Assembly (NCBI GenBank): GCA_964497125.1
Contig: CAZCDU010000010.1
Span: 2,888-66,887 of the forward strand
DNA length: 64,000 bases
Origin: an uncultured Victivallales bacterium
GTDB lineage: Bacteria > Verrucomicrobiota > Kiritimatiellia > UBA8416
Reading direction: 5' to 3'
Shown piece by piece: positions 8,823 through 36,797 of this stretch (positions are counted from its first letter, which is position 1; the number at the start of each line of letters is the position of its first letter). A program made the translations under genes and the position numbers. The notes below the pieces were generated by a model, which was given only the letters and a program-made list of their open reading frames with translations, had not been told where the DNA came from and ran no database searches.

Positions 8823-8837
8823 GGGGTCGTCGTCTGT

Positions 8838-10045: not shown

Positions 10046-10251
10046 GCTCTGCCACCCCCCATGAAGTAGAGGAACTCCACCTTATCCGCTTCTTTGACCG
10101 TCGTGTCGCCAAAGTCACTGCGACTCAGGATCTCGCCATTCAGTTCAACACTCACCATGTCCGGCTGCTCAACATCGTGCTCAGCCAGCAACGCAGTGAC
10201 CGTGATTTCCCCGCTGATTTCCGCTGCCTCACCATTAATCTGTATCTTCAT
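10042..10251 (-). CDS. ThiS/MoaD-family sulfur-carrier protein with a short C-terminal extension after Gly-Gly (HcyS/CysO-like)
   Basis: 69 aa with a beta-grasp-like sequence ending '...FMGGGRA'. The GG is followed by 2-3 extra residues, as in carrier proteins processed by a JAMM protease. Confidence 0.7.
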   Translation of the reverse strand: MKIQINGEAAEISGEITVTALLAEHDVEQPDMVSVELNGEILSRSDFGDTTVKEADKVEFLYFMGGGRA

Positions 10252-10264
10252 GCTGCTCTCCTTC

Positions 10265-11778: not shown

Positions 11779-12462
11779 TCAGAACGCAATCACGTAGTTG
11801 AACTTCACGGTATATACGTCTTCGGCACCGTCTGCGGAGGAAGTAGAGACCCAACCTTCGAACACAAGATCCAACGGCAGTTCGTGCAGCAATCCCGCGC
11901 TGGCAAGCCACTCATCGCCGCCATCGATCTGCCGCACATCAGCTCGCAAAACCAGGCCTCGCGACTGCAATTTGAGAGTCCTATCGAGGCCCGCGAACAG
12001 ACTGTTGTTATCCTTCTGGAAACTATAGCCCAAACTCAAACGCGCAACGCCGAGGTCAAGACCTGAAACCAGATAGGGATCGGCCTCCCCCGCCTCATCT
12101 CGATCATCAGAGACGTTCGCCACGCCAACGAGCATGGCGTAGCAAGGCTCATCGCCCGGCAGAGGCAGTCGCCATTTGGCCTGCCCGGTCAGCGGCCCGC
12201 TATCGCCTGAATCAACTCTCGAGTCGAGTCCGACCTCAACACCTGCCGGCAAGCCGTACTTCAGGCCGGCCACGTACGCGGGCCCCGCGCCGCTCATGTA
12301 ATTACCCCACGTCTGCAGCACCAACACATTTCGCGGTGCTACATCTACAGTCGGGATATTGTTAAGTCCCGATGGCGAGGCCCAGGCCATCCCGCATACC
12401 ATAATGCTCAATCCGCCTGCTGCAACGCCCATCCACTTGTTTCGTCTCACTGTCTTACGCAT
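11779..12462 (-). CDS. putative outer-membrane beta-barrel protein
   Basis: 227 aa with a signal peptide, alternating amphipathic beta-strand pattern and a C-terminal aromatic residue ('...YVIAF'). Confidence 0.45.
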   Translation of the reverse strand: MRKTVRRNKWMGVAAGGLSIMVCGMAWASPSGLNNIPTVDVAPRNVLVLQTWGNYMSGAGPAYVAGLKYGLPAGVEVGLDSRVDSGDSGPLTGQAKWRLPLPGDEPCYAMLVGVANVSDDRDEAGEADPYLVSGLDLGVARLSLGYSFQKDNNSLFAGLDRTLKLQSRGLVLRADVRQIDGGDEWLASAGLLHELPLDLVFEGWVSTSSADGAEDVYTVKFNYVIAF

Positions 12463-12468
12463 ACCGTA

Positions 12469-12657
12469 TCACTCCTTCTCTTGACTGTTGTCTGCTACCT
12501 CGCGCCGGCCTCTCTTAAACTCCGTAAGACTGGCGCCGAGCGAGCGCGCCAGCTCGGGCAGTCTCTTGGCCCCGAACAAAAACACCAGAATCAGCAGTAT
12601 GATTCCGATTTCACCGATTCCCGGCATGCCACCGGTAAAGAATGCGAATACCATCAC
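12469..12657 (-). CDS. tatA: twin-arginine translocase subunit TatA/E
   Basis: 62 aa with an N-terminal TM helix then 'FGAKRLPELARSLGASLTEFKRG', the TatA amphipathic helix signature. Confidence 0.8.
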   Translation of the reverse strand: MMVFAFFTGGMPGIGEIGIILLILVFLFGAKRLPELARSLGASLTEFKRGRREVADNSQEKE

Positions 12658-12746
12658 ACGACCCCCGTTACGTTACGAAGTCCCAGCAGCTCATGCCGGT
12701 TGCTTCAGATGCTTGCCCTCAGCAAAAAGCCCATCATGAGTTGCCT

Positions 12747-13718
12747 CTAGCCCCCAATTGCAGCCATGGAGACAGGCTGCTCAAAATGGATGTCCGATCG
12801 CTTGCACTGTAGTGCCGTCCGCACGGTCGCAGCCAGTGAACCACCGTGACGGCCCTGCAACAGCGGGCGAATGTTGTGCCCTTCCCTGCGAGCCAGGCAT
12901 CCCATCAAGCGACCATCGGCCGTTAGCCGCAGCCTTGAGCAATCAGAGCAGAAGCGGTCGCTGCACGGCGAAATGAATCCAACCACGCCTTCGCTGCCAT
13001 CTTGTCCCCTTACGTGGTAACGCTTAGCCGACGCCCCGGGAACACGCGGAAGGGCTGCGAGTTCGAACGCGGTCGCCAACGTCTGACGCACGGCTGTCGT
13101 TGAAACAAACCTCTGCTCGAACAGTGCCGCGCCGTACCCAATCGGCATGAGCTCAAGGAACCTGACCTCGCAGCCGCGGCGCAAAGCAAACCAGAGTACG
13201 TCACACACTTCGTGATCATTGATCCCCCGCATGACCACCATGTTCAACTTGACCGGGCGCAAGTTAGCCCGGAGAGCGGCGTCGATTCCTCCAATGTTGC
13301 TCCCGACACCATCACGCCGAGTAATACGACGGAACGTATCCCGATTAAGCGAGTCGAGGCTGATGTTCACTCGCTGCAAACCCGCAGCGCTCAGGTCATC
13401 CGCCATTGCCCCCAGCAGTTGCGCATTTGTCGTCATACTGAGGTCGGGGACACCGAGTTCCGAAAGCCGTGCGACCAGATCCACGATGCCCTTGCGAGCC
13501 AACGGATCCCCGCCAGTCAAACGAACCTTCTGGATCGCGTATGACGCCCGAAGCTGGTCCACAAAGGTCCGAATTTCATCAAAACTGAGTACATCCTGAT
13601 GTTTGCAGGATGGCACGCCCTCGGCTGGCATACAATAGCGGCAGCGAAGCTGGCAGCGATCCGTCACCGAGATCCGCAACGAGACAGGGGGCCTGCGGAT
13701 GGGTGCGATCATAGTCAT
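12747..13718 (-). CDS. moaA: GTP 3',8-cyclase MoaA (radical SAM, molybdenum cofactor biosynthesis)
   Basis: 'CQLRCRYC' radical-SAM CxxxCxxC motif and a C-terminal second-cluster Cys triad 'CSDRFCSDCSRLRLTADGRLMGC'. Length 323 aa. Confidence 0.9.
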   Translation of the reverse strand: MTMIAPIRRPPVSLRISVTDRCQLRCRYCMPAEGVPSCKHQDVLSFDEIRTFVDQLRASYAIQKVRLTGGDPLARKGIVDLVARLSELGVPDLSMTTNAQLLGAMADDLSAAGLQRVNISLDSLNRDTFRRITRRDGVGSNIGGIDAALRANLRPVKLNMVVMRGINDHEVCDVLWFALRRGCEVRFLELMPIGYGAALFEQRFVSTTAVRQTLATAFELAALPRVPGASAKRYHVRGQDGSEGVVGFISPCSDRFCSDCSRLRLTADGRLMGCLARREGHNIRPLLQGRHGGSLAATVRTALQCKRSDIHFEQPVSMAAIGG

Positions 13719-13937
13719 CTCCTTTCCAATGCGAGACCACGGACCCTGAATGGCGTGTGGTACTCACGGGAGGTGTGATCATTTCCTTTCACACCCTATC
13801 GGCCCGCACCTCGTAGGCCTGACTCAGGCCGTTAGACGCATGGGCTCGGAGGCTTCTCATTGCGACGACTCTTGCCTCTGACAAATATATCTCAGCAGAT
13901 TTCCCGGGGCCGATACAACCTACCCCGGGATGATCAG

Positions 13938-13966
13938 GACGGGCTGCCAGACGCAGCCCGTCCCGT
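13938..13966 (-). terminator. GC-rich hairpin downstream of the porin gene (candidate intrinsic terminator)
   Basis: GGACGGGCTGC-cagac-GCAGCCCGTCC is a perfect 11-bp stem directly 3' of the porin stop. No strong U-tract follows. Confidence 0.4.
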
Positions 13967-13980
13967 CGCCGACAATGCCT

Positions 13981-15042
13981 TTAGAATTTTGCTCTGACAC
14001 CAAAGAGGATCGAATCCTCAATCGAGTTTTTGGCAACCTTCAGATCCTTGGCGTCCTTCATGTCACCCGAGTTGAAGTTCGAGTACTCCACCATCAGCTC
14101 ATAGTTTTTGGTTGGGCTGTACTTGACCCCCGCAGACCAGAATTCCGTTTCCACGTCGTCTGTCGTGTCTTCGTCGATAATCTCCAGCCGGCCCCATATA
14201 GCCGTCTTCTCAATCGCGTTGCACTCAACACCGAGCGTGACGAGGCTGGGGTCATAACCGGGATAGCCCTTCAGGCTACTGAATGAGATATACTCTGCGT
14301 TGATGTTCCCAATGCCTTTGACCTTGTAGACCGCACCAGCCCCCCAGCGGGTTTCATCTTCCATTGCCGAAACCGTCGTGACGCCAGTATCGTCGTCTGT
14401 AGCCTCGGTATCGGAATACGATTCGGACGCACCCGAAATCTTAACGGTTAGATTCTTGATGAGCTTATCGATCGTGAGTTTTGCGGTGTAGTTGTCGCCA
14501 GCCTCGTTTGTCGCCAGGGTCTCATCGTCATCGGTATGCCGATGCTGATAGGCCGCAGCGGCAATGTTGCCCACGCAGGGAATATCAACGATTCCGTGGA
14601 ATCCCCAGACCTTGTCGATTTCGAACTGATGGGCGACCGAATCGTTCAGGTACTTGTCGTAGTCCAGGCCGAAGGGCATTTCGTCTTTGCCAAAGATCAG
14701 CGTTACGCATGAATCGCCGATGTGCTTCGCCGTGAAGTTCGCTTCTTCAACGGCTTTTGCGCTGACAGTCGTCCCATCGCGCGATTCGATGTCTGCTGCA
14801 TCCAGCTTGAGTTTGGCGGCGAGGTCGTTCTCGAACTTGGCGCCAAAATCAAGATAGAACTGATTCGACTTGAACTTATCATCATCACCCGTGCCGCCAA
14901 CGTTCTTGCTATTCTCGTAAAACAGCTCAAGGTTCGCCTTAAGTGACAATTCCGGGATCTTCGTTTCCTCTGCTGCGTTGGTCATGGAAACGACCATGCA
15001 CAGCACCACACCGATAGCCACAGCTCTTGTTAAACCACTCAT
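13981..15042 (-). CDS. outer-membrane porin (beta-barrel, C-terminal Phe)
   Basis: Start set at 'MSGLTRAVAIGVVLCMVVSMTNAAEE' (signal peptide). Asp/Thr-rich loops and amphipathic strands. It ends '...FGVRAKF' and is the last gene of the Mo-enzyme operon. Confidence 0.55.
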   Translation of the reverse strand: MSGLTRAVAIGVVLCMVVSMTNAAEETKIPELSLKANLELFYENSKNVGGTGDDDKFKSNQFYLDFGAKFENDLAAKLKLDAADIESRDGTTVSAKAVEEANFTAKHIGDSCVTLIFGKDEMPFGLDYDKYLNDSVAHQFEIDKVWGFHGIVDIPCVGNIAAAAYQHRHTDDDETLATNEAGDNYTAKLTIDKLIKNLTVKISGASESYSDTEATDDDTGVTTVSAMEDETRWGAGAVYKVKGIGNINAEYISFSSLKGYPGYDPSLVTLGVECNAIEKTAIWGRLEIIDEDTTDDVETEFWSAGVKYSPTKNYELMVEYSNFNSGDMKDAKDLKVAKNSIEDSILFGVRAKF

Positions 15043-15174
15043 TCGTCTTACCCCCCTCACGTTATTTGGAACACCACAGCAACAGGTTCTGCTCCATGAT
15101 CCAGCATGTCGCAGATGTATCAATTTCCGTTCCTACCCTCCTCCCTGTACTCTTCTTCGCACAGTTGCCAATGT

Positions 15175-15822
15175 TCACCCTTCTTTCTGCAATTGGTGTC
15201 CGTGGCCGATAACGGTCGATGCACAGTCGGCAAGCGCTGAATAGAAGGCGTTGTCTGTGCCATGCCTCATCTTGTCGCAGAACTCAGGGACCCATGGACA
15301 AAGCAGAGCATCTGCAAAAGACCGCTGCTTGGCGGCGTAGGCCGCCGCCGTCTGCGGATCTGAGCTCTCGAGCGCAGCTATCTCCTTACAGATCAGATAG
15401 CTCATAAACTCCAACTCGATAGCAATGTGATCCGGCAGGTCTTTGCAGTCGTCACTCCTGGCGAGCCCCTCCTGCTCATACCATTTGATGACGTCCATCG
15501 TGGAGTCCCCCATGACTCGCCTGCCTTCATCAAGATACACTGACCCATATGGCGCGGCCGCCAGGGCAAAGGGGCCTACGAACAGTTTTGCATAAGCGAT
15601 CTTCAACTGCTCATCGGTGTAGCGCGCCAACCCGCTTTCCATATCATCAACGCACGCCGCCGCCTCCGGGCAAACCGCACTGAGACACTCACGCAAGTTG
15701 TCAAGAACGTCTTCTGCCGCCAGAAGCTCCTTCTCAGGCTCATAGAAACAGGCCGCGAGAAGTCTCAATCCGTTTTCCTGTCGCTTCTTACTGGCGACTT
15801 TCTCGTTCTCTGAATTGCTCAT
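15175..15822 (-). CDS. TorD/DmsD-family redox-enzyme maturation chaperone
   Basis: 215-aa all-helical acidic protein with TorD-like segments ('FYEPEKELL...LxxEYxxLF'). It sits between the FeS subunit and the porin. Confidence 0.65.
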   Translation of the reverse strand: MSNSENEKVASKKRQENGLRLLAACFYEPEKELLAAEDVLDNLRECLSAVCPEAAACVDDMESGLARYTDEQLKIAYAKLFVGPFALAAAPYGSVYLDEGRRVMGDSTMDVIKWYEQEGLARSDDCKDLPDHIAIELEFMSYLICKEIAALESSDPQTAAAYAAKQRSFADALLCPWVPEFCDKMRHGTDNAFYSALADCASTVIGHGHQLQKEG

Positions 15823-15907
15823 ATCGGTGCCTCATCTGAGGCTGGTGACGAGATCTCGTTTCGCCGCTCACCACCAGCCAGCGCTCAGAACGCCCTGTAC
15901 CGCGTCC

Positions 15908-16747
15908 TCAGGCCTTCTTGTAATCCCTGATATAGAAGACATTCGGCCCGGTGCCCTTTTCGCCATCCGCCAGCACGCCGCCCTTGTTGTCTTTCAGCCT
16001 TGTGGCTTTATGCTTCTTGAGGAGCTTACTGACATCACTGTCCGGATCGTTCCTGTCACCAAAAATGCGAGCATTGGCAGGACATGACACCACGCAGTAA
16101 GGATCTTCGCCGTTTCTCACTCGATGGATGCAGAACGTGCACTTCTCAACCCAACCATCCTTACGGACGTCCGCCAGCTTGCCCCGGCCACGCGATTTCT
16201 GCCCCTCCTCAGGCGATTTGCGATCCTTGAACTCATAGGCATGCTTTGACGGCGGGGTGGCTCCCGCTTTCTCTGCGATCTCAGCCCCGGAGCACGTTAC
16301 ACCAGCAATTGCCGCGCTCTGGTCGTGCGAGGCGGCATGTGTCTCGTCACCGACTTCATTGAAGCTTATTACCGTATAGCCGGCGCCGTCCTTCTCAACA
16401 TCTTCAGAGCTGTAGGGACATCCGTCCGCCTTGAAGCACTTCCTGCACTGAATGCAGTACCGTTGATTGTACATGGTAATGCCATCTTCAGTCTTGTACA
16501 GCGCTCTCGGCTCAGGACAGCCCTCAAGGCATTTCGGGTCATCACAGTGATTGCAGAGCACGGGACGATTGACGTATTCGACGTTCGGAAACTTACCTTT
16601 CGCCTCAATACTGAAATCGGCCCAGTTGAAGGTCTGCCCCTTGGCTCTCGCCTGTGTGTTGTTCTCCGTCTTGCAGGCCATGGCGCAGGCACCGCAGCCC
16701 ACGCACTTCTGCAGATCAATTACCATTGCGTATTGTTTCGTAGCCAT
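15908..16747 (-). CDS. 4Fe-4S ferredoxin-type subunit (DmsB/PsrB/ArrB-like) of the molybdoenzyme
   Basis: Four Cys clusters: 'CVGCGACAMAC', 'CNHCDDPKCLEGCP', 'CIQCRKCFKADGCP' and 'CTFCIHR...CVVSCP'. Confidence 0.85.
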   Translation of the reverse strand: MATKQYAMVIDLQKCVGCGACAMACKTENNTQARAKGQTFNWADFSIEAKGKFPNVEYVNRPVLCNHCDDPKCLEGCPEPRALYKTEDGITMYNQRYCIQCRKCFKADGCPYSSEDVEKDGAGYTVISFNEVGDETHAASHDQSAAIAGVTCSGAEIAEKAGATPPSKHAYEFKDRKSPEEGQKSRGRGKLADVRKDGWVEKCTFCIHRVRNGEDPYCVVSCPANARIFGDRNDPDSDVSKLLKKHKATRLKDNKGGVLADGEKGTGPNVFYIRDYKKA

Positions 16748-16766
16748 AATATACAGGTCCTTTCAC

Positions 16767-19298
16767 TTAGATCTTGGCTATTTTGACGCCTGTGAACCCG
16801 CCGTTTCTCACCGTACTGCCACTAAGCCGCTCATAGTCATCAGGCATCAACATATTGTTGTTGCCTCCTCTCGGCAGCGCTTTGCTGAAATCTCCGGCGG
16901 CGACACGACCATATGCCCAGTGTCCCTGCCCGTAGCATTTAGCCACCGTGCCTGGACGGATGCCCTCCCAGAGCTTGGCCTTCACTTCGATGGTCGCATT
17001 GACAGACGTGACCTTGATCGCGTCACCGTCCTTGAGGCCCAGCTTCGCCGCATCATCCGGGTTGATCTGCAACACGTCGTCCCAGCTCTTGTCGCCCACA
17101 TCCAGTTTCTTGAACTCATGGTACCATGGACAGTTCTGGCTTCGCCCCTCCCTGTTCAGTTTGGATTTGAAGTCAATGAACGTGAAGGGGTACTCCTCGA
17201 GACTGCCATGCCGGAAGGGCGACTCGTAGTGCGGCACAAAGGCCTTCTCTCCGCGCGCTTCGTAGTTGGTAATCTCCAGGATATCGTCGACCGTCGTCTC
17301 GTACTTGTCAGCATGAGATGTCAGGGCCTTCTTCAAGGTCTCGGAATAGAACTCGAACTTGTGAGTCGCCGTTTTGAAGTGACCGCCCCAACGTTTCTTG
17401 TATGCGTAGGGCGAGGAATTCCACATCCCCCGCGCCTTGAACGCTTCCCATCCGTCGATCTTGTCACCGCCAACGTCTGCCTTGCCGTCCCACAGAGGCG
17501 CGGTCATGATCTTCAACGAATGCTCCGTGAATTCCAGCCCGTTGGTGGGCTCCTTGCCCGTCTCCGGGTCCTTGAACTCCTTCGTGAAGTAGTCAAGGAG
17601 GTTGGGGAATCCCCTCTCCTTCAGCTTCTCGGCAATCAGCCACGGGATCTCGGTTTCATCCATCTTGGCGTCCCACATGGGCTTGACCACCGGCTGAATC
17701 AGCGTTGCCGTGGCATAGCGGTTCGCCTTGGTTTTGACGAATCCAAGTTTCTCGAACGTGGTGATGCGAGCCGGCAACACAACATCAGCGAACTGAGTCA
17801 TCTCAGATGCATTGCACGTGATATCGGCAAAGAACGGAAGCTGAGCCATCGCCTCTTCCCAACGCTGTGCGCCGGTGTTCGAGAAGACGAAGTTGTTCAT
17901 GTAGGCAATCGCCACCTGGATGTCATACGGATCCTTCGCCAGCATGGCGTTAGCCGTATTGTTGGTGACCACGGCGCTGCCTGGCTTCCCCTTTTTCACG
18001 GCCGGAAACATCTTATACCCACGCTGATCGATCTTCTTCTGCTTGGTATTCGTCTGCGATAGCTCGTCCTGGTACTTGGAATAGCTTGGTATCTTGTTTA
18101 CGGGAATACTCGCACTCGCAAGCACGCCGCCTTCGTGGTCAATACAACCGACGAGGCCATTCAACGCATGTACGGCCATCGCGGAGTAACCACCCCTGAC
18201 GTGCATCGCAGCACCAGGCCCCATCCAGACGATGGCGTTCGGAGCCGCTTTCGCCAGCCCGATTGCCACGCGCACAATCTGCTCGGTGGGTATGAGCGTG
18301 AGCGTCGACGCCCATTCAGGCGTCTTGTCCTTGAGCTCCAAGTTCCACCATTTTACGACGCCATTGGTTTCCTTCTCATCAAAAGCGGTCTCATCAACTT
18401 CGACACCAGCCTTGAAGAGATTCTTCTTGTCCTTGAAGTCGCCAACGAATTCGCGACTCCAGAGGCCATTGACGAGGATGGTGTGGGCCAACGCCGAAGC
18501 GAGTGCCCCGTCTTCGCCGGGTTTAACCGGCAGCCATTCCTGTGCTTTCGTCGAGGACGAACTCAACTTCGGATCCACAACAGCGACCGTAGCCTGGTCG
18601 AGCATGTCGCCGAAACGTTTGATTGTCGCGGGGATCATTCTGTTGCTGCTAACCGGGTCGCAGCCCCAGAATATAGCATACTTTGTCTTGGACAGATCGT
18701 AGTCCCTGTAGCTCCAGTTCCCGGCCGTATAGAACGAGCCGAACTTCTCGGCCTCAGCGCAAATCGCGCTGTGCGATATCCCGTTAGGCGAGCCGAACAC
18801 CTTTGGCAGTGCGCCGTAGAGCGTGTCGCGCATGTAGGAGTACCGGCCACGCAGGAGCAGGAACTTGTGTGTTTCACCACGCTTGCGGAGCGCCATCATT
18901 TTATCTGCAATCGTATCAAGCGCTTCGTCCCAGGAAATTGGAACAAACTTGGGATCGACCCCTTTGCCCTTCTTCGGGTTCGTGCGTTTCATCGGGGTCT
19001 TGATCCTGTCGGGATCGTAGAGCTCCTGCAGTCCAATGTGCGCCTTCGGGCACAGGACTCCCTCATTCTGCTTCGAATGGCGATTTCCCCTGATCTTCAC
19101 GGCTCTGCCATCCTGCACAAAGACCTCAGCCGGGCACCATGTGGTGCATCCCTGGCAGGAGGTCGGCATCCAACTGCCGACAATGTCCGTCGCTCCGCGC
19201 TCAGAAACAGCCAATGCGCTCAGCGCAGGACCATAAACGACAGCTACGCCGCCTGCAGCCGAAGTCAACTTCATGAACCCTCTTCTCGATAGTCTCAT
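16767..19298 (-). CDS. Tat-exported molybdopterin (Mo-bisPGD) oxidoreductase catalytic subunit, Psr/Arr/Ttr-like clade
   Basis: Twin-arginine leader 'SRRGFMKLTSAAGG'. N-terminal [4Fe-4S] motif 'CQGCTTWCP...(27)...CPK'. 'HSAICAEAE' is a candidate Cys Mo-ligand motif. Length 843 aa. Confidence 0.85.
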   Translation of the reverse strand: MRLSRRGFMKLTSAAGGVAVVYGPALSALAVSERGATDIVGSWMPTSCQGCTTWCPAEVFVQDGRAVKIRGNRHSKQNEGVLCPKAHIGLQELYDPDRIKTPMKRTNPKKGKGVDPKFVPISWDEALDTIADKMMALRKRGETHKFLLLRGRYSYMRDTLYGALPKVFGSPNGISHSAICAEAEKFGSFYTAGNWSYRDYDLSKTKYAIFWGCDPVSSNRMIPATIKRFGDMLDQATVAVVDPKLSSSSTKAQEWLPVKPGEDGALASALAHTILVNGLWSREFVGDFKDKKNLFKAGVEVDETAFDEKETNGVVKWWNLELKDKTPEWASTLTLIPTEQIVRVAIGLAKAAPNAIVWMGPGAAMHVRGGYSAMAVHALNGLVGCIDHEGGVLASASIPVNKIPSYSKYQDELSQTNTKQKKIDQRGYKMFPAVKKGKPGSAVVTNNTANAMLAKDPYDIQVAIAYMNNFVFSNTGAQRWEEAMAQLPFFADITCNASEMTQFADVVLPARITTFEKLGFVKTKANRYATATLIQPVVKPMWDAKMDETEIPWLIAEKLKERGFPNLLDYFTKEFKDPETGKEPTNGLEFTEHSLKIMTAPLWDGKADVGGDKIDGWEAFKARGMWNSSPYAYKKRWGGHFKTATHKFEFYSETLKKALTSHADKYETTVDDILEITNYEARGEKAFVPHYESPFRHGSLEEYPFTFIDFKSKLNREGRSQNCPWYHEFKKLDVGDKSWDDVLQINPDDAAKLGLKDGDAIKVTSVNATIEVKAKLWEGIRPGTVAKCYGQGHWAYGRVAAGDFSKALPRGGNNNMLMPDDYERLSGSTVRNGGFTGVKIAKI

Positions 19299-19382
19299 CT
19301 TGCCTTCTCCTTGTGTTTCAGCGTCCGCGCACGCATGTGGCGTCCTGTGCCCCGGAATGCCCGTTCCCAGCCGTCAGTCAAT

Positions 19383-20879
19383 TCACTCCTCCTCGAGTTC
19401 CACAATCGCATCTTCGAAATACTCAATCGCAATATCCAGAAGCAGGGCGGCGTACTTCTTGTTGTGAACCCCGCCGCCGGCACGGACAATCCCAAGATTT
19501 GTCCGTCCATTCTTAATCAACGTTTCAGCCTTCTCGATGGCCGAGGCAGACCGCTTGCCCTTCGCCTGTGCCAGAGCGTCAACGGCTGCGGCTTCATACT
19601 CAACGGCTTCCTCCAGGATCTCCTCCACATCGCTTTTCCACTTCTTGATGAGGGCGCCTTCCTTCTCGGAGTGGCAGTTCACGCAGACACTGGCCGTGGC
19701 GAGCTTCTTCGTTCTGCCCTTGGCATCAAAGGCGTCCACAATGTGACAGGCAAGACACCCCATCTCGACATCGTGGTGCTTGATTGGCATAGGCGTGTCC
19801 AAGCCCTTGCCTCCTGTGCCTGAGATCAGCAACCGCTTGTTTTGATGCGGGGTGGCATGGCACGCCTTACAGTCGCTCAGCGAAGCGTCGAAGTGGTCAA
19901 AGCCCTCAGGAGCCTTGCCGTGTTCGATAATCTCGTGGCAGCTGAAACAGCTGGCCGTCTGGGGCGCTACATGCTTTTCGTGCATCAGCTCTGCGTCACA
20001 AGCGTCCTTCATGATTTCCTGATCGTATTCGTGGCACTCCAGGCAGCGCTGCTCCCGCATTACGCCGGTTCCCCTGACTTGGTGGAGATGGCAACTCGCG
20101 CAGGCGACCCCTCTTTGCTCAAGGATCTTGTGCGTGACAAGCTCCTCGCCGTCCGAAGCATCATCCCTGAAAGGCTTCTCCGGGACCGTGTGGCACAATG
20201 AGCATGCGGCCTGCTCCTCGTTCATCTCCACGTTCTTGAAGTGACACAAATGGCAGGTCTTCGCCGCGACCTCCATGTGGTGATCTGCAGTCTCGTGGCG
20301 GTGACAGATGCTGCAATGCTTCTCCTGACCCGCCATCCAGTTGTCCTCTTTGAAATGTGCTTTATGCACGAATGGGACGGTTGATTCAGACCCGTCCTTT
20401 CGCGTGTAAGAGGCAAATGTGAGCCGATTGGTCATCCACTGCCCTGCTTCGGCGTCCTCGTCAGTGGAATGGCAACCGGATGCCGTGCAGCTGCCATCAT
20501 TGACAAGCGCTGCTTTCTGGACCGTACTCGCGCTGGTCCCAAGGTATGAGAAGAGCTGTCCAAGGCCCTTGAACTTGGCTCTCAACGTATGATGCTCGCC
20601 CGGCGGATAGTGACAATCCACGCACGTCACCCCCTCTTCGGCGTGCTCCGACTTTGCCCACGTCGCATGATAACTGTCCATGATATGACAGCTTCCACAG
20701 AAGGTAGGGCGCGAGGTCGAATACTCAGCCCCGCAAACGAGGATCACCAGGAAGAGGACCACGCCCCCGATGAACAGCAACCAGCGGCGCCGAATTCTGT
20801 CGAGCCATATCACCACCCGACGGCCAACGGGGCCGATGGGCGGCACCTCAACGTTTCTGCTCTGAGAGTCTTTCTTCAT
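19383..20879 (-). CDS. membrane-anchored multiheme cytochrome c, NapC/NirT/NrfH family (about 11-12 hemes)
   Basis: N-terminal TM helix. Eleven CxxCH motifs: CGSCH, CVDCH, CSICH, CHLCH, CSLCH, CASCH, CLECH, CFSCH, CKACH, CLACH, CVNCH. One additional CX4CH, 'CTASGCH'. Confidence 0.85.
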   Translation of the reverse strand: MKKDSQSRNVEVPPIGPVGRRVVIWLDRIRRRWLLFIGGVVLFLVILVCGAEYSTSRPTFCGSCHIMDSYHATWAKSEHAEEGVTCVDCHYPPGEHHTLRAKFKGLGQLFSYLGTSASTVQKAALVNDGSCTASGCHSTDEDAEAGQWMTNRLTFASYTRKDGSESTVPFVHKAHFKEDNWMAGQEKHCSICHRHETADHHMEVAAKTCHLCHFKNVEMNEEQAACSLCHTVPEKPFRDDASDGEELVTHKILEQRGVACASCHLHQVRGTGVMREQRCLECHEYDQEIMKDACDAELMHEKHVAPQTASCFSCHEIIEHGKAPEGFDHFDASLSDCKACHATPHQNKRLLISGTGGKGLDTPMPIKHHDVEMGCLACHIVDAFDAKGRTKKLATASVCVNCHSEKEGALIKKWKSDVEEILEEAVEYEAAAVDALAQAKGKRSASAIEKAETLIKNGRTNLGIVRAGGGVHNKKYAALLLDIAIEYFEDAIVELEEE

Positions 20880-21367
20880 ATCAGTATGACATCCTGTTGC
20901 GTCTGGTTGACGGCGGGAGAGAGCCCTATCCTGCTCCTATGGCAAAACGAAGGTCCGATGGCGTTGTGCAACGCATCCATCAGGCACTCCCAGGAGGCCG
21001 ACCGCTCAATAAAAGTATGTACGGACCTCCACAGCCGGTCCATTCGCGACGCCATGCCGACCCTCAGCCCCATGGCAGTGCCCATTGCGCTGACGACGAT
21101 CACCGGCGTATCCCGCGTTGCCGGGTCGCTTCTCAGTTCGGAAAGAACCTGCAGTCCCTCCGAGCCGCCGGGCTTCATGACGTCGAGTACGATGAGATCG
21201 GGCTTCACATTCTTAGCCGTGCGCACAGCGTCTGCCCCGCACGTCGCCGCAAGCACGGGATACTCCGAGCCAACCGCACGACAAGTCGCTGCGAGCCACT
21301 GCGGGTTACCATCGACAACAAGAACCGTCCGAGGCCGTGGTCTCTGTGGCATGTACGCGGCACTCAT
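20876..21367 (-). CDS. stand-alone response-regulator receiver protein
   Basis: CheY-like pattern 'TVLVVDGNP...DLIVLDVMKPGGSEG...PVIVVSA'. Start set at 'MSAAYMP'. It overlaps the cytochrome gene start by 4 bp. Confidence 0.55.
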   Translation of the reverse strand: MSAAYMPQRPRPRTVLVVDGNPQWLAATCRAVGSEYPVLAATCGADAVRTAKNVKPDLIVLDVMKPGGSEGLQVLSELRSDPATRDTPVIVVSAMGTAMGLRVGMASRMDRLWRSVHTFIERSASWECLMDALHNAIGPSFCHRSRIGLSPAVNQTQQDVILI

Positions 21368-21443
21368 GCGAACCTCCAACATCATATTTGCAGTGACAAC
21401 ACCCTGTCCTATCGTGTCCAATTGTCGCATGGGCTTGGCAAGT

Positions 21444-21500
21444 CCGCATCCGCCTGAAATGCGGGTTTTCTGACAAAACCGCATCCGTACAAAATACGGA
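21444..21500. terminator. cluster of overlapping GC-rich hairpins between narL-like gene and downstream operon (terminator/attenuator candidate)
   Basis: CCGCAT-ccgcctgaa-ATGCGG, ATGCGGGTTTT-ctgac-AAAACCGCAT and CCGTA-caaaa-TACGG share arms, so they form mutually exclusive structures. Confidence 0.4.
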
Positions 21501-21566
21501 CAGGGAGGGAAGGAGGGGGGGGCGGCAACAGGGGCGCACGTGTGGCGGCTAGCAGGAGCGACGGCT

Positions 21567-22226
21567 CTACTGCAAGGGCGTGAACAGCCCGTTCCGCATG
21601 GCGAAGGAAACGAGCTCAGCGCGGCTCGAAACCTGAAGCTTGCCCATAATGTGTTCCCGGTGGGACTGAACCGTTCGCACCGAGATGCTCAGCAGCGTGG
21701 CAATCTCTGCATTCGTGTGCCCGTGGGCAAGCAATCGGCAGACTTCACGCTCCCGCGAGGTGAGAGAGGCCAACTCGGGATCACGATCAAGTTTGCGCTC
21801 GGTACCCGCAAAAGCGGATACCGCGTTCTCAACAACAGCCTTGTCCCAGTAGACGCCGCCATCGCCAACACGCTGAATCGCTTCAAGTAGCTCATCACCG
21901 GTCGATCGCTTGAGAACAAACCCCTTTACACCCAGCCGGATCATGTCCTGCGCGTAATACTCCTCCTGGTGCATGGTCAGGACGATGACCTTGAGATCCG
22001 GTGACTGTTTCAGTGCCTGTCGCGCCACAACGATGCCGGACATGTCAGGTAGGCTGATATCGAGAAGTAGGAGATCAGGGCTGCAGGCACTCAACTGATC
22101 CAGGGTCTCCTCCCCGGTTCCCGCTTCACCAACAATGCTCAAGCCAGGCTGCTGCTCGAGAAAGATGCGCATGGCCTTTCTGAACATCGCGTGGTCATCT
22201 GCCAGAAGTAGCCTTGTGGGGGTCAT
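21567..22226 (-). CDS. NarL/FixJ-family response regulator (receiver + LuxR-type HTH)
   Basis: Receiver 'LLLADDHAMFRKAM...DLLLLDISLPDMSG' and C-terminal HTH 'LTSREREVCRLLAHGHTNAEIATLLSISVRTVQSHREHIMGKL'. Confidence 0.85.
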   Translation of the reverse strand: MTPTRLLLADDHAMFRKAMRIFLEQQPGLSIVGEAGTGEETLDQLSACSPDLLLLDISLPDMSGIVVARQALKQSPDLKVIVLTMHQEEYYAQDMIRLGVKGFVLKRSTGDELLEAIQRVGDGGVYWDKAVVENAVSAFAGTERKLDRDPELASLTSREREVCRLLAHGHTNAEIATLLSISVRTVQSHREHIMGKLQVSSRAELVSFAMRNGLFTPLQ

Positions 22227-23683
22227 GCGTGTTGCTCCGTTTCGCTCAGCAGGGGCACTCGCGCACGTACGGTTGTGCCTTCACCAACATCCGATGTAAT
22301 ATCCAGCTCTCCCCCCAGAAGCGAGCATCTTTCGCTCATGCTCAACAGGCCCAATCCTCGACCGGGAGTCGCCTGATCGGTGCGGAAACCGATCCCATCA
22401 TCTTCAAAAAGCAGCGTGGCCTGCTGCGGATCAATCAGCAGAATCACGCTGACATGCGATGGCTGCGCATGCCGGATGGCATTGGTAATCGCCTCCTGTG
22501 CGATGCGGTAAAAGGCCACCTCCACGGGTTCAGGAAGCCGTTGGCTGCCGTCAGCGCAATTCGTCTCGTAATCGATCCGCACCTGGTGCCTTGCGGCCGT
22601 ATCTTTCACGTAGGCCCGCAATGCCGAGTCCAAACCATAGTCGTCGAGAACCGAAGGATGCATGCCCTTACTAACCTGGCGGACCTCTTCAATGAGGTCG
22701 CCAATCCTCTCCTGGTGGCCCCCGCAGGAATCGCCGCAGTGATCGCCGTTGCTTTGAGATTTCATATCGACCAGAAGGGCCAATAACGATTGGCCAATCT
22801 GATCGTGCAATTCACGCGAGATCACCTTCCGCTCCCGTTCCTGTGCCGTGATGATGCGTTGCACGAGAGCAGCACGAGCATTCTCCTTCTCAAGGATGGT
22901 CCGGTGGTTCTGCGCCAGCGTTTCGGCCATCTCGTTGAATGCGGTTGCCAGGTCGCCAATCTCATCGCCTGAAAACACCGTGGCCCGCGCATCAAGGTTA
23001 TGCTGACTGACTTGTTGTACGGCTTCGTTAAGGCGATGCACCGGGTGCGTGATGGCCAGTGAGAGAAGCAATGCCAGCCCAATGCCAATAGCCGCGCAAA
23101 TCGCCAGGCTGGCAAGAACCGTATTGCGCAGCGAAGCCAACTCTTCAGCGATCATGCGATGACTCCACCCCAATTGCACGTATCCGACGAGTCCCCCCAT
23201 CACGGGACGAAGGGCCTCAAAGATCAGACCATCCTCCTTGGCATCCACCACGCGAAAGGCATCGTTCGGAAACGACTGATATTGGGGCCGCGAAAGCAGG
23301 CCATCAGGGACAGTGCCGTCAAAGGTGTGCGTCAGGATGACACCATCCGAATCCCGTACCAGGATGTAGAGAATATCGGCGTGCCGTGCTCTTGTTTTCG
23401 ACAGGATCTGCCGGACCGCCACAACATCGTGAACGCTGAGCGGGCGGGCGAGATAGTCCGCGAGTGATTCGGTTTCGCTGATGGTCCTCTCCGTCAGCGA
23501 CGCGTTGAGGTTTTCTTGTAGCGTGTCACGCGTCCTAACGAATGTGATGACCCCAAAGCATGCAGCCACGATCGCGCCAATGCCCATCATCTTCACGAGG
23601 ATCGGAACAGACAGAATCGACCATACGGCTCCTCCCGCCGGACGCTGCCCTGTACCCGTTCCGCTCATGGAGCACTGAGCCAT
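22223..23683 (-). CDS. sensor histidine kinase, NarX-like (HAMP + HisKA_3 + HATPase)
   Basis: Two TM segments flank a periplasmic domain. H-box 'ISRELHDQIGQSL' (HisKA_3) and an ATPase-domain G-box 'DDGIGF...GRGLGLLSMSER'. Contains an unusual 'CGDSCGGH' insert. Confidence 0.85.
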   Translation of the reverse strand: MAQCSMSGTGTGQRPAGGAVWSILSVPILVKMMGIGAIVAACFGVITFVRTRDTLQENLNASLTERTISETESLADYLARPLSVHDVVAVRQILSKTRARHADILYILVRDSDGVILTHTFDGTVPDGLLSRPQYQSFPNDAFRVVDAKEDGLIFEALRPVMGGLVGYVQLGWSHRMIAEELASLRNTVLASLAICAAIGIGLALLLSLAITHPVHRLNEAVQQVSQHNLDARATVFSGDEIGDLATAFNEMAETLAQNHRTILEKENARAALVQRIITAQERERKVISRELHDQIGQSLLALLVDMKSQSNGDHCGDSCGGHQERIGDLIEEVRQVSKGMHPSVLDDYGLDSALRAYVKDTAARHQVRIDYETNCADGSQRLPEPVEVAFYRIAQEAITNAIRHAQPSHVSVILLIDPQQATLLFEDDGIGFRTDQATPGRGLGLLSMSERCSLLGGELDITSDVGEGTTVRARVPLLSETEQHA

Positions 23684-24681
23684 GAGGTGTGTAGGTCACG
23701 GACGTAATCGTAATCCTCATCACGCGGCGCAAAGAAAAGATCGAAATCCAGGGCCTCCAGAATGCGCTTACCTTCCGCTTCCGTGTGCATGGCCAGCAGG
23801 ATCTGCTGCAACTCGACAAACCGGTCGTCCGGCAGATCGGTAGGAACGATCAGCGGGGGCATCCCAAAGGGAGGCGAGCGGTGAATGACCTTCAACTTCT
23901 CTCCTAGAGCGGGATCTGAAGCCACCATCTGCTCGTAGACAATACTATCAACCGCGGCGGCGTCCACAACGCCCGCCTTGACTGCAAACACAGATTGATC
24001 GTGACTTCCGCTTATGATGTGCTTTCCGAAGAAGGTTCCCGCATCAAGGCCCTTCTTTTTCAGAAGCGTCATGGGATAGAGCCACCCGGAGGTCGACAGA
24101 ACATCACCGGAGGCAAAACGTTTGCCTCGCAAGTCCGTCAGCGCCGAGATGCTGCTTGAGGACGGAACAATGATTAGCGAATGATAATCACGCCTACCCC
24201 CTATCTCAGGTGCGGCCAGAAGCCGCGCACTGAACGCCGTTTCGGCTAGCACATAGGAATAGGTACACACCATTGCCACATCACACTGCCGCATACGGAT
24301 GAGATCGTTGACCTCGGAGTAGTTCTTCCCACGCATCAGGGACGGCGACAGCTCCATCTTCCCGGCGATATACCCAATCAGGGCGCCATACAACCCGACA
24401 GAGGCCTCCGGCGAAATCACAGGCGCGATGGCAACACGGAGAACGGACTCCGTCCCGCCTCCCATTCGGGGCAACTCAACATGAACACCGTCACGAATAT
24501 GTAAATCCAGCGTTGCCTCAGGCGAAAGCCTCTCCCCATCACGGTCGAGAAAAATAAATGCAACGACCCCAACCGCCAGTACGACAGCCGTAAGGGCCAG
24601 CGCGAAGCAGATCACAGGAGATCGACCGCCGCCAGAATCATCTCTATCTCTCTTCATTCTATAACCTTTGTCCAGATGCAC
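23665..24681 (-). CDS. PhnD-like periplasmic substrate-binding protein (phosphonate/phosphite-binding family) associated with the sensor kinase
   Basis: 338 aa with an N-terminal TM/signal region. The SBP fold resembles PhnD/PtxB ('LRVAIAPVISPE...GYIAGKM...DVAMVCTYSYV'). No ABC transporter partner nearby. It overlaps the kinase start. Confidence 0.6.
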   Translation of the reverse strand: MHLDKGYRMKRDRDDSGGGRSPVICFALALTAVVLAVGVVAFIFLDRDGERLSPEATLDLHIRDGVHVELPRMGGGTESVLRVAIAPVISPEASVGLYGALIGYIAGKMELSPSLMRGKNYSEVNDLIRMRQCDVAMVCTYSYVLAETAFSARLLAAPEIGGRRDYHSLIIVPSSSSISALTDLRGKRFASGDVLSTSGWLYPMTLLKKKGLDAGTFFGKHIISGSHDQSVFAVKAGVVDAAAVDSIVYEQMVASDPALGEKLKVIHRSPPFGMPPLIVPTDLPDDRFVELQQILLAMHTEAEGKRILEALDFDLFFAPRDEDYDYVRDLHTSWLSAP

Positions 24682-24782
24682 CGTGCCCGATCATGGCGAC
24701 AGCCTCGCCCATGTCATCACTCCAGCAGGCACAATGCCACCAACAGACAGGCGATCCAGATCCACGCTCATCTGCCACAGAT

Positions 24783-25169
24783 TCAGCCCTGCATCTTTTG
24801 AATGAGCTCGAGCAGAACTGAAGCATCAACCGGTTTCTCAAGGAACTCCTGCACGGGCATCCAGTCCGAATCGATGTCCTCACCCGAGAAATCCATAGGG
24901 AATTCCTGGTTAACTCCGGTCAGCATAATGATTGGCAGCGCCTCCAGGTCGCGGTTGTGTCTTATCTGCCGGGCAAGATCAAAGCCCGCTGCCGGATTCT
25001 CAGGGAACATGACGTCGAGGATCAGGATGTCCGGTCGATCATCAAGCAACACTTGCACTGCATTCTCCGTCTCGTGCAGAAGACTCACGTCATGGCCTAC
25101 GCTGCTGATAATAGCGGCCGTATTCCGTGCGATCTCGACGTCATCATCTATAATTTTGATCTTTGCCAT
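24783..25169 (-). CDS. stand-alone response-regulator receiver protein
   Basis: CheY-like 'KIKIIDDDVEIAR...DILILDVMFPENPAAGFDLARQI...PIIMLTG'. Start set at 'MAKIKII'. Confidence 0.6.
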   Translation of the reverse strand: MAKIKIIDDDVEIARNTAAIISSVGHDVSLLHETENAVQVLLDDRPDILILDVMFPENPAAGFDLARQIRHNRDLEALPIIMLTGVNQEFPMDFSGEDIDSDWMPVQEFLEKPVDASVLLELIQKMQG

Positions 25170-25243
25170 ACGCCTTGCTCCCATTTTCGTAAAACCCAAC
25201 GCCCCCAAGAAGGAGTGTGTTTCGTTTGCGATCCGTGACTCGT

Positions 25244-25702
25244 CTAGAAGTACTGCATCGCCATCATCTTCTTGATCATGACGATATCACGCTCCTCAAT
25301 GTGCATGAGTGTCTCCACCGCATCACGCGCTTCACCCACTATTACCGATTGATCCAGGACATCTCGATACAGCTCCATCACTTGGGTGTCGTACGTGAGG
25401 GCGTTCTCCAGAAGCATACTGCCGGTTACATCCTCGGGGGGCGTATCGGGAACGTGAGAGCTCTCGTCCGGGGCGAAAGGAATGTCGCGCTCCATCTCAA
25501 TGGCGCGCATCTGCTCCTGCTCAGTCGCACCCAGCCCCGCGAGCCCCTGCTCCTGGTGACGGTGATGGCGGGCCAAGTGGTACGTCAGGAGACGCACCTC
25601 GTTGTCCGCTGCGGAATCCCGGACCGACGCATAGAAATGGACCAGGCGCTCATCAAATGCTGCAGCTCGATCCAACAGCTCACCCAGTGTTACGGTGTCC
25701 AC
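25244..25702 (-). CDS. hypothetical protein (152 aa, acidic, helical)
   Basis: ORF only. Codon usage is consistent with neighbours. No family was recognised. Confidence 0.35.
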   Translation of the reverse strand: MDTVTLGELLDRAAAFDERLVHFYASVRDSAADNEVRLLTYHLARHHRHQEQGLAGLGATEQEQMRAIEMERDIPFAPDESSHVPDTPPEDVTGSMLLENALTYDTQVMELYRDVLDQSVIVGEARDAVETLMHIEERDIVMIKKMMAMQYF

Positions 25703-26608: not shown

Positions 26609-27412
26609 CTACCGGCTTTGCCGGTAGGCCTGCAGATACGAGTTACTGTAGATGGTCTTGTCCAGTAGCACCTCGGCCGTAATCATCTCGTTCATCAGCA
26701 GCTCGTCCAGCGGATCATGAATAGAGGCGTCGAGCCCATTCGCAATAGCCATTACAAGAAATGCACGGTTGATCAGACCGCGTTCCGTTGCGCCCTGGCT
26801 CAGATTGCTGAGACCGATGACGACATGCGGCGCGGGATCGGAGAGCATCTTGAACTGGGCGATCGTTTCCAGCACCATCCCCGGAGCTTTCTGGTCGCAG
26901 TTGACGGGCAATATAATGGGGTCGAGGTAGAGGCTGTCGATAGGGACGTCGCGCTCAACCGCGGCACCCAGGGCCCGCATGGCAATCTCGAGTTTCGCGT
27001 CGGTTGTCGCGGCCACGCCGTTCTCATCAATCGAGAGACACACAATATCGGCGTCGAACTCCTTCGCCAGGTCCATGAAACCTTCCAGTTTATCCTGCTG
27101 CCCCGTGGTGGAATTGATGATCATCTTGCCACCCTTGCAACCCGCCTCCACGCCCACACGCATGGTAGAAAGCGCCGGATTATCCACGGCCAGCGGTTTG
27201 TCGGTGACCTCTCGGGTGGCCTCAACAAGCCAGCGCATCACGTCGGCACGCTCCGCCTTCGGCACGCGTGTTCCTACATTGATGTCAAGGGCATCCGCGC
27301 CGGCCTCGAGCTGCTTCTCGGCCATCGACTGCACAGGCTTCACATCCTTGTTGGCAATGGCATCCCCAATATCCGTGAACATTCCGTTAATGCGTTCCCC
27401 TATCACAAACAT
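26609..27412 (-). CDS. acsE: methyltetrahydrofolate:corrinoid/iron-sulfur protein methyltransferase
   Basis: 267-aa pterin-binding (DHPS-like) TIM barrel. 'MFVIGERINGMF' start is typical of AcsE/MeTr. Last gene of the Wood-Ljungdahl carbonyl-branch operon. Confidence 0.85.
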   Translation of the reverse strand: MFVIGERINGMFTDIGDAIANKDVKPVQSMAEKQLEAGADALDINVGTRVPKAERADVMRWLVEATREVTDKPLAVDNPALSTMRVGVEAGCKGGKMIINSTTGQQDKLEGFMDLAKEFDADIVCLSIDENGVAATTDAKLEIAMRALGAAVERDVPIDSLYLDPIILPVNCDQKAPGMVLETIAQFKMLSDPAPHVVIGLSNLSQGATERGLINRAFLVMAIANGLDASIHDPLDELLMNEMITAEVLLDKTIYSNSYLQAYRQSR

Positions 27413-27435
27413 GTCGATCGTTCCTTTCTCTGTTT

Positions 27436-32435: not shown

Positions 32436-32528
32436 GATGATCTCCGTTTTGGTTGCGTCCGTGCGTCGCTCATCCCAGGAGCGCGATTCGGACGAAATGC
32501 AGTTCTATCGCCTGGGCCGATATCCTTC

Positions 32529-36791: not shown

Positions 36792-36797
36792 CCACTC

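Follow-up and report, generated by a model that had tools for sequence, protein, structure and literature searches.

A probable arsenate respiration locus with a linked 12-haem cytochrome and an ArrXSR sensory module in an uncultured Kiritimatiellae-type bacterium

The window analysed here, a 64-kb stretch of contig CAZCDU010000010.1, carries a cluster of 13 open reading frames (ORFs), all on the minus strand, that spans window positions 11779–25208. The cluster very probably encodes an arsenate-inducible respiratory arsenate reductase (Arr) system of an uncultured anaerobe of the Kiritimatiellae or, more broadly, of Planctomycetes–Verrucomicrobia–Chlamydiae (PVC) type. This kind of system, Arr together with an ArrXSR sensor, is already known and is securely identified here, and its architecture is a variant: a dedicated 12-haem NrfH-type cytochrome is encoded in place of the membrane subunit ArrC or the cytochrome CymA, and a porin gene is added. 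We establish the gene content, the motifs, the homologies and the conservation of the cassette in the following.

Domains were called with Pfam and NCBIfam. Among the related loci, L001 is an ENA metagenome scaffold, L002–L004 are from PVC bacteria, L005, L012, L035 and L040 from Nitrospirota, and L128 from Kiritimatiellae; the five PVC-type loci referred to below are the window, L003, L004, L128 and L129. The whole arr cassette was found again across these five loci, which is not chance. In a preliminary description the ORFs had been reported as co-directional on the minus strand, and their positions and every domain named there were confirmed. It had also been proposed that membership of a known clade, with the usual accessory genes explaining all components, would make this a routine operon. 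The first half of this proposal holds, as the clade is that of ArrA and most of the parts are routine; the usual arr accessory genes, however, leave the 12-haem cytochrome, the porin and two extra receiver proteins unexplained.

The catalytic module and its predicted substrate

The catalytic subunit ArrA (16767–19298, 843 aa) is a molybdenum-bis(pyranopterin guanine dinucleotide) (Mo-bisPGD) enzyme predicted to be exported by the twin-arginine translocation (Tat) pathway. Among all PDB sequences, its top match was ArrA of Shewanella sp. ANA-3 (6cz7_A; 952 bits, residues 40–833), and the next was the polysulfide/thiosulfate reductase (PsrA) of Thermus at 145 bits. Its identity is 51% with ANA-3 ArrA and rises to 60% with that of Geobacter sp. 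OR-1. The NCBIfam ArrA model matched it end to end with 1096 bits, a score about four times that of the PhsA model (276 bits).

The motifs gave the same picture. A Tat motif, SRRGFMK, occupies residues 4–10, and an N-terminal [4Fe-4S] motif, CX2CX3CX27C, is formed by C48, C51, C55 and C83, where Pfam Molybdop_Fe4S4 also matched. The stretch HSAICAEAE is present and places C180, the presumptive Mo ligand, in an HSxxC context, and the RGRY motif is found at R150-G-R-Y153 (RGRYSY in the sequence). We take R165, Y166, H189, S190, C193, K198 and Y210 of ANA-3 ArrA to be the residues that contact arsenate in the structure described by Glasser et al. 2018. Residues R152, Y153, H176, S177, C180, K185 and Y197 of the window ArrA align with identical residues of 6cz7_A at this presumed contact set. 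R150-G-R-Y153, H176, S177, C180, K185 and Y197 are identical in the Shewanella and the Geobacter OR-1 ArrA, and 41 of the 44 ArrAs compared have exactly this nine-residue pattern (RGRY plus H, S, C, K and Y). Psr-like enzymes that are paired with the same cytochrome family served as a negative control; they scored 178–211 bits on the ArrA model and the motifs were absent. According to PMC6549141, which cites Glasser 2018, it is (R/K)GRY that separates ArrA from ArxA, whose motif is XGRGWG.

By scores, identity and motifs, the 843-aa subunit thus falls squarely in the ArrA clade as far as sequence can place it, and its predicted substrate, assignable from these features, is arsenate. The preliminary description had recognised a Tat-exported Mo-bisPGD enzyme of the Psr/Arr branch with an N-terminal 4Fe-4S site and a Cys in the HSAICAEAE context, and the motifs bear this out. 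Arsenate had been named there as one possible substrate, in agreement with the present ArrA and ArrX assignments; the further statement that no substrate could be assigned from sequence is contradicted by the difference between the ArrA and PsrA scores (952 versus 145 bits), the RGRY motif, the Cys ligand and the presumed arsenate-binding residues.

The gene directly after arrA encodes ArrB (15908–16747), the electron-transfer subunit, which has no signal peptide. Its best PDB match was ArrB of the same Shewanella complex (6cz7_B, E=2e-47, full length), and NCBIfam ArrB was its best family (202 bits). Its 16 Cys residues form four cluster motifs, as expected of the four-cluster FeS subunit reported earlier. 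ArrD (15175–15822) is a maturation chaperone of the TorD/NarJ family (Pfam Nitrate_red_del, 119 bits), best matched by TorD/DmsD-type chaperones, and of the 39 genome loci that extend to this position, 38 have its gene 3′ of arrB. From what is known of these families, ArrD would hold apo-ArrA until Mo-bisPGD is inserted, and the signal-less ArrB would be carried by ArrA through the Tat system.

As arrA is the standard marker of microbial arsenic mobilisation, the assignment has a wider bearing: close ArrA relatives labelled only "molybdopterin-dependent oxidoreductase" in metagenome-assembled genomes (MAGs) of PVC bacteria, Nitrospirota, SAR324 and others probably belong to genuine arr systems, each equipped with a sensor and an electron-input module of its own. 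Kiritimatiellae-type PVC bacteria are known as polysaccharide fermenters, and the lineage is not known for arsenate respiration.

The 12-haem cytochrome and electron entry into ArrAB

No ORF of the cluster has more than two predicted transmembrane (TM) segments and none matches NrfD in Pfam, and hence a polytopic ArrC/NrfD-PsrC subunit (at least eight TM segments) was not found among them. In its place, a membrane-anchored cytochrome c of the NrfH/NapC type (19383–20879, 498 aa) is encoded 84 nt upstream of arrA. It has 12 haem sites, 11 CXXCH and one CX4CH, and all of these, as well as many distal His residues and a C-terminal GGGVHNKK sequence, are unchanged across 44 homologues with identities as low as 40%. 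A single TM helix (residues 29–56) follows a basic N-terminus; because of this order, the haem domain is expected to face the periplasm by the positive-inside rule. The preliminary description had anticipated an 11–12-haem NapC-type protein with periplasmic haems, no NrfD/PsrC subunit and quinol oxidation through this cytochrome; the haem count, the NapC/NirT N-terminus, the predicted topology and the lack of any polytopic cluster protein all agree with it, and the cytochrome is the likely point of quinol entry.

Pfam Cytochrom_NNT matched the cytochrome with 38.9 bits (cut-off 24.1). Its first ∼70 periplasmic residues align to NrfH of D. vulgaris and include the haem-1 motif CXXCHxM (here CGSCHIM, 61–67), whose Met67 is retained in 34 of the 44 homologues. 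The likeness to the tetrahaem proteins NrfH, NapC and CymA therefore comprises the single N-terminal TM helix and, with D. vulgaris NrfH, the first two haem motifs. The tetrahaem architecture of ∼140–200 aa that is typical of NrfH, NapC, NirT and CymA is not found here; the protein has three times more haems, only ∼90 residues can be aligned, a three-helix region with the invariant GGGVHNKK is present at its C-terminus, and NCBIfam NrfH scored 55 bits against a cut-off of 134. We consider the cytochrome to be NrfH-like at its N-terminus and probably not a canonical NrfH/NapC member.

The order cytochrome–arrA–arrB–arrD was observed in 7 of 42 arr loci from reference genomes (L002–L004 of PVC bacteria; L005, L012, L035 and L040 of Nitrospirota) and in three of the four distant homologues examined; it occurs in PVC bacteria, Nitrospirota, Desulfobacteria and other metagenomic contigs. 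Scanning metagenome contigs with the alignment of the cytochrome family yielded 46 informative loci. The neighbour was a true ArrA in 14 of these and another Mo-bisPGD enzyme in 17; eight had B- or D-like matches only, and in seven none was detected. Thus, in 39 of the 46 the cytochrome gene has A/B/D molybdoenzyme genes next to it, with no NrfD subunit among them. The idea that the family is specific for Arr was discarded, as 17 of the 46 loci carry another Psr-like enzyme. Because of these neighbour counts, the family, which is widespread in metagenomes, appears to provide a general subunit for electron input into periplasmic Arr- and Psr-type enzymes without NrfD.

In Shewanella, quinol oxidation for ArrAB is known to be carried out by CymA, a tetrahaem protein of the NapC/NirT family (PMC2762525, PMC2500031), and the general role suggested here for the 12-haem family would be analogous to it. 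We propose the 12-haem cytochrome as both quinol dehydrogenase and electron wire for ArrAB of the window. Quinol would be oxidised at its NrfH-like N-terminal module, replacing ArrC or a CymA acting in trans, and the haem chain would conduct the electrons to ArrB with its four [4Fe-4S] clusters; from there they would reach the [4Fe-4S] cluster of ArrA and the Cys180-ligated Mo, where As(V) would be reduced to As(III). The linked cytochrome thereby offers a testable answer to how electrons enter ArrAB without ArrC or CymA; the remaining features of the locus are those of an ordinary arr operon. In the searchable literature we found no account of an arr-linked multihaem NapC-type cytochrome, nor of arr in Kiritimatiellae, which is not proof of novelty.

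A different role for the cytochrome is improbable, though it is the alternative that survives best: the protein could be a catalytic reductase of the NrfH–NrfA or octahaem type, or a general periplasmic hub, with ArrAB fed by an unlinked quinol dehydrogenase. Pfam Cytochrom_C552 matched residues 396–496 with 20.6 bits, below its cut-off of 24.1, and the family also accompanies other molybdoenzymes or, in seven of the 46 loci, none that was detected. The best Foldseek matches were octahaem and pentahaem nitrite reductases at E ∼3e-3; together with NrfH they make up a weak set of hits (E at least 3e-3, TM-score ∼0.2) that can be taken as a hint only, obtained with a poor AlphaFold2 model built from the 44-sequence alignment (predicted local distance difference test, pLDDT, 60.5; predicted TM-score, pTM, 0.32). 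Against a catalytic role, the 12 sites comprise CXXCH and CX4CH motifs only, atypical haem motifs of catalytic centres such as CXXCK are absent, and many distal His residues are invariant. The proximity to NrfD-less A/B/D genes in 39 of the 46 loci, and the TM-anchored NrfH-like N-terminus with CXXCHxM, which is the quinol-oxidising part of NrfH, argue for the quinol dehydrogenase that we prefer.

A broader proposal, to which we give slightly less than an even chance, is that these cytochromes are an unrecognised and widespread family of dedicated quinol dehydrogenase/electron-wire subunits that replace NrfD-type anchors for Arr- and Psr-like enzymes. Arr complexes would then come in a third kind, in addition to ArrABC and ArrAB with CymA, and Kiritimatiellae-type PVC bacteria would respire arsenate in anoxic waters with the help of an arsenate-adapted OprO/P-like porin.

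Two sets of loci with related layouts were noted on the side. A sister cassette (L100:8417–10972, L119:7469–10000, L126:8493–11015 and ∼14 more metagenome loci among L074–L127) has the order PhnD-like binding protein, kinase, 12-haem cytochrome, FeS subunit, Mo subunit and chaperone. Its Mo subunit (∼840–850 aa) has a Tat signal and the motifs HYGRxKxS and HTSICEGxKW, is 24–27% identical to ArrA, and best matches PhsA/PsrA below cut-off. With the same types of cytochrome and PhnD-like sensor, this Psr-like cassette is a better candidate for an unknown substrate than the window. In gamma- and alphaproteobacterial loci (L021, L022, L028, L029 and L030; ∼7.5–9.9 kb), another ArrC-less input pair lies directly upstream of arrA, consisting of a 9-haem Cytochrome_cB-family protein and a 4-TM cytochrome b561. 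Polytopic proteins encoded upstream of arrA elsewhere were considered as ArrC; the one that was checked (L015) is an Acr3/SBF arsenite carrier.

Sensing, regulatory DNA and outer-membrane proteins

Upstream of the structural genes lie those of a sensory trio. ArrX (23665–24681) is a predicted membrane-tethered periplasmic arsenate-binding sensor of the PhnD fold (Pfam Phosphonate-bd, 196 bits) with one N-terminal hydrophobic segment. Its best PDB match was ArrX of Chrysiogenes arsenatis (6x6b; E=3e-46, 161 bits; 37% identity), compared with 3e-24 for PtxB/PhnD and 4e-22 (82 bits) for AioX. The AioX pocket consists of Y88, C106, Y131, S161, S163, H192 and D210, including a Cys that PhnD lacks (PMC5908839). 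When aligned to 6esk and 6x6b, all seven AioX/ArrX pocket residues are kept in the window protein (Y121, C139, Y166, S196, S198, H227 and D245). Badilla et al. pointed out that the pocket residues alone do not fix specificity (PMC5908839). Overall, the window protein is closer to ArrX, which binds arsenate with a dissociation constant of ∼1 μM (PMC5908839), than to the arsenite-binding AioX, and it is predicted to bind arsenate.

ArrS (22223–23683) is a sensor histidine kinase with two TM segments, a periplasmic sCache_3_2 domain, HAMP, HisKA_3 and HATPase; its gene overlaps both arrX and arrR by a few bases, and an sCache_3_2 kinase is likewise encoded 3′ of the ArrX-like genes in L046, L047 and L128. 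ArrR (21567–22226, 219 aa) is a response regulator of the NarL/FixJ type, with a Response_reg receiver and a GerE helix–turn–helix of the FixJ/CitB (LuxR) type. It has no AAA+ sigma54 domain and in this resembles ArrR of Chrysiogenes and Firmicutes, which is CitB/FixJ-like without an AAA+ domain (PMC5908839). No genes of a PhnC/PhnE-type ABC transporter were found by Pfam among the cluster ORFs.

The binding protein, the kinase and the regulator are, by homology, an ArrXSR module. The preliminary description had regarded a PhnD-like sensor with a NarX-like kinase as unusual; the combination is in fact the published arsenate-sensing trio ArrXSR (PMC5908839), earlier named ArrTSR (PMC5492636), and the nearest structure is that of ArrX. 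An ArrX-like gene adjoins arrA in ∼22 of the 42 arr loci from reference genomes, upstream in all but one. Because modules of the ArrXSR kind are also found with enzymes other than Arr, a substrate could not be deduced from the sensor alone.

Two receiver-only proteins are encoded near this trio. RRa (24783–25208, 141 aa) is a single-domain CheY-like receiver (Pfam Response_reg, 51 bits); a 64% identical orthologue lies upstream of arrX in L002/L128, and it is absent from L129. RRb (20876–21484; probable start Met40, ∼21367) is a degenerate receiver (Pfam Response_reg, 40.6 bits over 82 of 111 positions), in which the DD pair is reduced to D-G and the conserved Lys is replaced. Orthologues of RRb are 47% (L128) and 39% (L129) identical, and the copy in L003 is decayed. 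A conserved hypothetical protein upstream of RRa (25244–25702, minus strand; 152 aa as listed) is a possible further member of the cluster; it has no Pfam match and is 50% identical to a 167-aa gene product encoded at the same position in L128.

Between arrR and the RRb gene lies a conserved intergenic block (21431–21502, minus strand), a candidate ArrR operator and promoter of the structural operon and possibly the terminator of arrXSR. It contains a perfect palindrome, TCCGTATTTTGTACGGA, at 21484–21500 (TCCGTA-N5-TACGGA), read directly from the sequence, which is followed by a CGGATGCGG box at 21444–21453. The hairpin cluster reported earlier is real (21479–21502) and corresponds to this palindrome, common to the window and three related loci. 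The block of ∼70 nt is kept in these four PVC loci amid diverging intergenic DNA, and the single change in a palindrome arm, in L004, is uncompensated; for these reasons we favour a protein-binding site, for which ArrR would be the obvious candidate binder. The window has one exact copy of the palindrome, with no second copy upstream of arrX.

By homology, periplasmic arsenate would bind ArrX tethered to the inner membrane, the signal would pass to the sCache/HAMP kinase ArrS, and ArrS would phosphorylate ArrR. ArrR would then act at TCCGTA-N5-TACGGA and turn on the operon comprising the degenerate receiver, the cytochrome, arrA, arrB, arrD and the porin.

The porin gene (13981–15123; probable start Met28, ∼15042) encodes an outer-membrane protein of the Porin_4/phosphate-selective OprO-P family, with a signal peptide and a C-terminal Phe. 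Both Pfam Porin_4 (38.4 bits) and Porin_O_P (30 bits; cut-off 20.9) were above the Pfam cut-offs, as the earlier porin call requires; the Porin_O_P match spans only profile positions 4–193 of 370, and Porin_4 scores higher. A porin gene is located 3′ of arrD in all five PVC loci; those of L004 and L128 are of the window type, the L128 protein being 73% identical, and L003 and L129 have a full-length Porin_O_P type. Given the phosphate-porin family, it is reasonable to suppose that this porin would admit the phosphate-like anion arsenate across the outer membrane. In the ENA scaffold L001 (8599–8720), which is otherwise identical here to window 13981–14100, an insertion/deletion of ∼7 nt near the 3′ end of the porin gene splits the porin into calls of 313 and 37 aa; the window copy is intact, with the typical C-terminal Phe, and the difference is likely one of assembly or strain. 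A gene of ∼320 aa that follows arrD in delta- and gammaproteobacterial loci was considered as a porin and rejected, as it encodes a ferredoxin-like Fe-S protein.

Further downstream are moaA (12747–13718; molybdenum cofactor (Moco) biosynthesis, radical S-adenosylmethionine enzyme; Pfam Radical_SAM and Mob_synth_C), tatA (12469–12657; Pfam TatA_B_E, 61 bits) and a gene for a small outer-membrane-protein-like product (11779–12462; 227 aa, signal peptide, C-terminal Phe, no Pfam match). A Moco riboswitch (13703–13863, minus strand; Rfam RF01055, 50.1 bits against a gathering score of 36, E=1.3e-9, full-length model) is located immediately upstream of moaA; it and the small gene were absent from the preliminary description. 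As the riboswitch precedes moaA, the three genes are suggested to form a separate cofactor-controlled unit, in which moaA and tatA would support cofactor supply and export. Moco genes also lie 3′ of the arr cassette in L003, L004, L047, L128 and L129. Orthologues of the 227-aa protein are 70% identical in L003, beside the porin, and 53% identical in L129, between arrR and the cytochrome gene; this protein and the 152-aa hypothetical protein are both arr-linked in PVC relatives.

Direction of the reaction, known systems and genomic setting

In vitro, Arr enzymes work in both directions, and the Arx enzymes form their sister clade. The system could accordingly serve for oxidation, like an Arx-type anaerobic arsenite oxidase, and deliver arsenite electrons through ArrB and the 12-haem cytochrome to the quinone pool or other periplasmic acceptors; we consider this very improbable. 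A chain of 12 haems does exceed the need of a simple quinol-to-ArrB link, and the carbon monoxide dehydrogenase/acetyl-CoA synthase (CODH/ACS) genes next door imply that the organism may be autotrophic. The enzyme, however, has the ArrA-type RGRY and not XGRGWG, it is 51–60% identical to ArrAs of proven arsenate respirers, the sensor is closest to ArrX (161 bits) and not to AioX (82 bits), and the cluster has no arxB2 or arxC genes. The published Arx systems (arxB2ABCD with arxXSR) have the same kind of sensing module (PMC6549141, PMC5908839); their XGRGWG motif, the ArxC membrane subunit, ArxB2 and a sigma54/AtoC-type ArxR are all lacking in the window.

The chance is slimmest that the system reduces a different or unknown oxyanion (thiosulfate, polysulfide, tetrathionate, selenate or antimonate) to which the PhnD-like sensor is tuned: ArrXSR-like genes do occur beside SreA in Methanoperedens elements (PMC13444090), beside 'Ttr' in Melioribacter (PMC5492636) and in the Psr-like sister cassette, and the NCBIfam ArrA cut-off is unreached, but the arsenate-contact residues that we take from Shewanella ArrA are all kept, the ArrA model scores four times above PhsA, and it is the sister-cassette enzymes that have the non-Arr look (24–27% identity, other motifs, PhsA as best match).

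Several observations weigh against an arsenate-respiring system fed by the cytochrome. The 1096 bits of ArrA are below the equivalog cut-off of NCBIfam NF041714 (1600), and the 202 bits of ArrB are below that of its model (450). The same ArrA model gave 1010 bits, likewise under 1600, for the ArrA of an arsenate-respiring isolate, Geobacter sp. OR-1 (PMC4319506); this implies that the cut-off is narrower than the functional ArrA family. The numbers of the presumed ANA-3 contact residues are backed solely by a uniform offset of +40 in the 6cz7 chain. No ars resistance genes are present within the 64-kb window. The cytochrome family is not Arr-specific, being paired with a different Psr-like enzyme in 17 of 46 loci, and its C-terminus has a faint similarity to NrfA/octahaem reductases. 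The palindrome also scores as terminator-like.

We compared the arsenate-reducing system that we favour with three known ones. It resembles Shewanella sp. ANA-3 ArrAB with CymA (6CZ7–6CZA) in the Tat signal, the FeS motif, the Mo-Cys, RGRY and the presumed arsenate-binding residues. The alignment of ArrB over its full length and the lack of ArrC are also shared, as is, in the window by proposal, electron entry via a membrane cytochrome of the NapC/NirT family (PMC2762525). However, CymA of Shewanella is a shared, unlinked hub with four haems, whereas the window cytochrome has 12 and is encoded next to arrA. No porin has been reported for Shewanella ArrAB, and gammaproteobacterial arsenate respirers are without arrXSR according to Badilla et al. 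(PMC5908839); the window has both.

Chrysiogenes arsenatis (arrAB with arrXSR; ArrX structures 6X6B and 6XL2) is alike in its PhnD-fold sensor, its kinase and its FixJ/CitB (NarL)-type ArrR. Its structural genes are likewise preceded by a palindrome that is a candidate operator, of sequence tcaggtttttccctga as against TCCGTA-N5-TACGGA in the window. Compared with it, the window adds the membrane anchor-like segment of ArrX, the two receiver-only proteins, the cytochrome and the porin.

Geobacter sp. OR-1 shares the order arrA–arrB–arrD, with 60%, 56% and 41% identity for ArrA, ArrB and ArrD, respectively (PMC4319506). Its arr genes are adjoined by ars resistance genes with ArsR and followed, after arrD, by a ferredoxin-like gene of 311 aa, neither of which is found in the window; conversely, ArrXSR, the linked cytochrome and the porin are all present in the window and absent from OR-1. 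Genes for such ferredoxin-like proteins of ∼310–330 aa with multiple 4Fe-4S motifs lie 3′ of arrD in L018 (14097–15032) and at the equivalent position in ∼20 loci, among arr loci of Geobacter, Desulfobulbaceae and gammaproteobacteria.

The window is nearly identical to the ENA metagenome scaffold L001, and the nearest genomes are MAGs of Kiritimatiellae, Victivallales and Verrucomicrobia, with ArrA 87–89% identical. The flanks are common with L128: genes for a CODH/ACS delta subunit, a pterin-binding protein and a DUF3786 protein on one side and for sulfite reductase–TusA on the other. The segment 14000–20000, which covers arrABD, the cytochrome and the porin, has a G+C content of 0.54–0.57 compared with ∼0.58–0.61, and a negative AT skew unlike that of its flanks. 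The low G+C and the inverted AT skew are compatible with horizontal acquisition of the segment.

Adjoining the arr cluster, genes of the carbonyl branch of the Wood–Ljungdahl pathway (26609–37583, minus strand) encode CODH (Prismane), ACS beta, two CdhD-like corrinoid Fe-S subunits, a pterin-binding methyltransferase, a RACo activator and two CooC-like ATPases, a set that stands out for a Kiritimatiellae-like genome. On the other side, a sulfur-carrier-type Cys/Met biosynthesis set (5393–11512, minus strand) comprises a Cys/Met pyridoxal phosphate enzyme, ThiS, ThiF, a JAB deubiquitinase-like protein, a sulfite reductase–TusA fusion of ∼790 aa and a ThiI-like protein.

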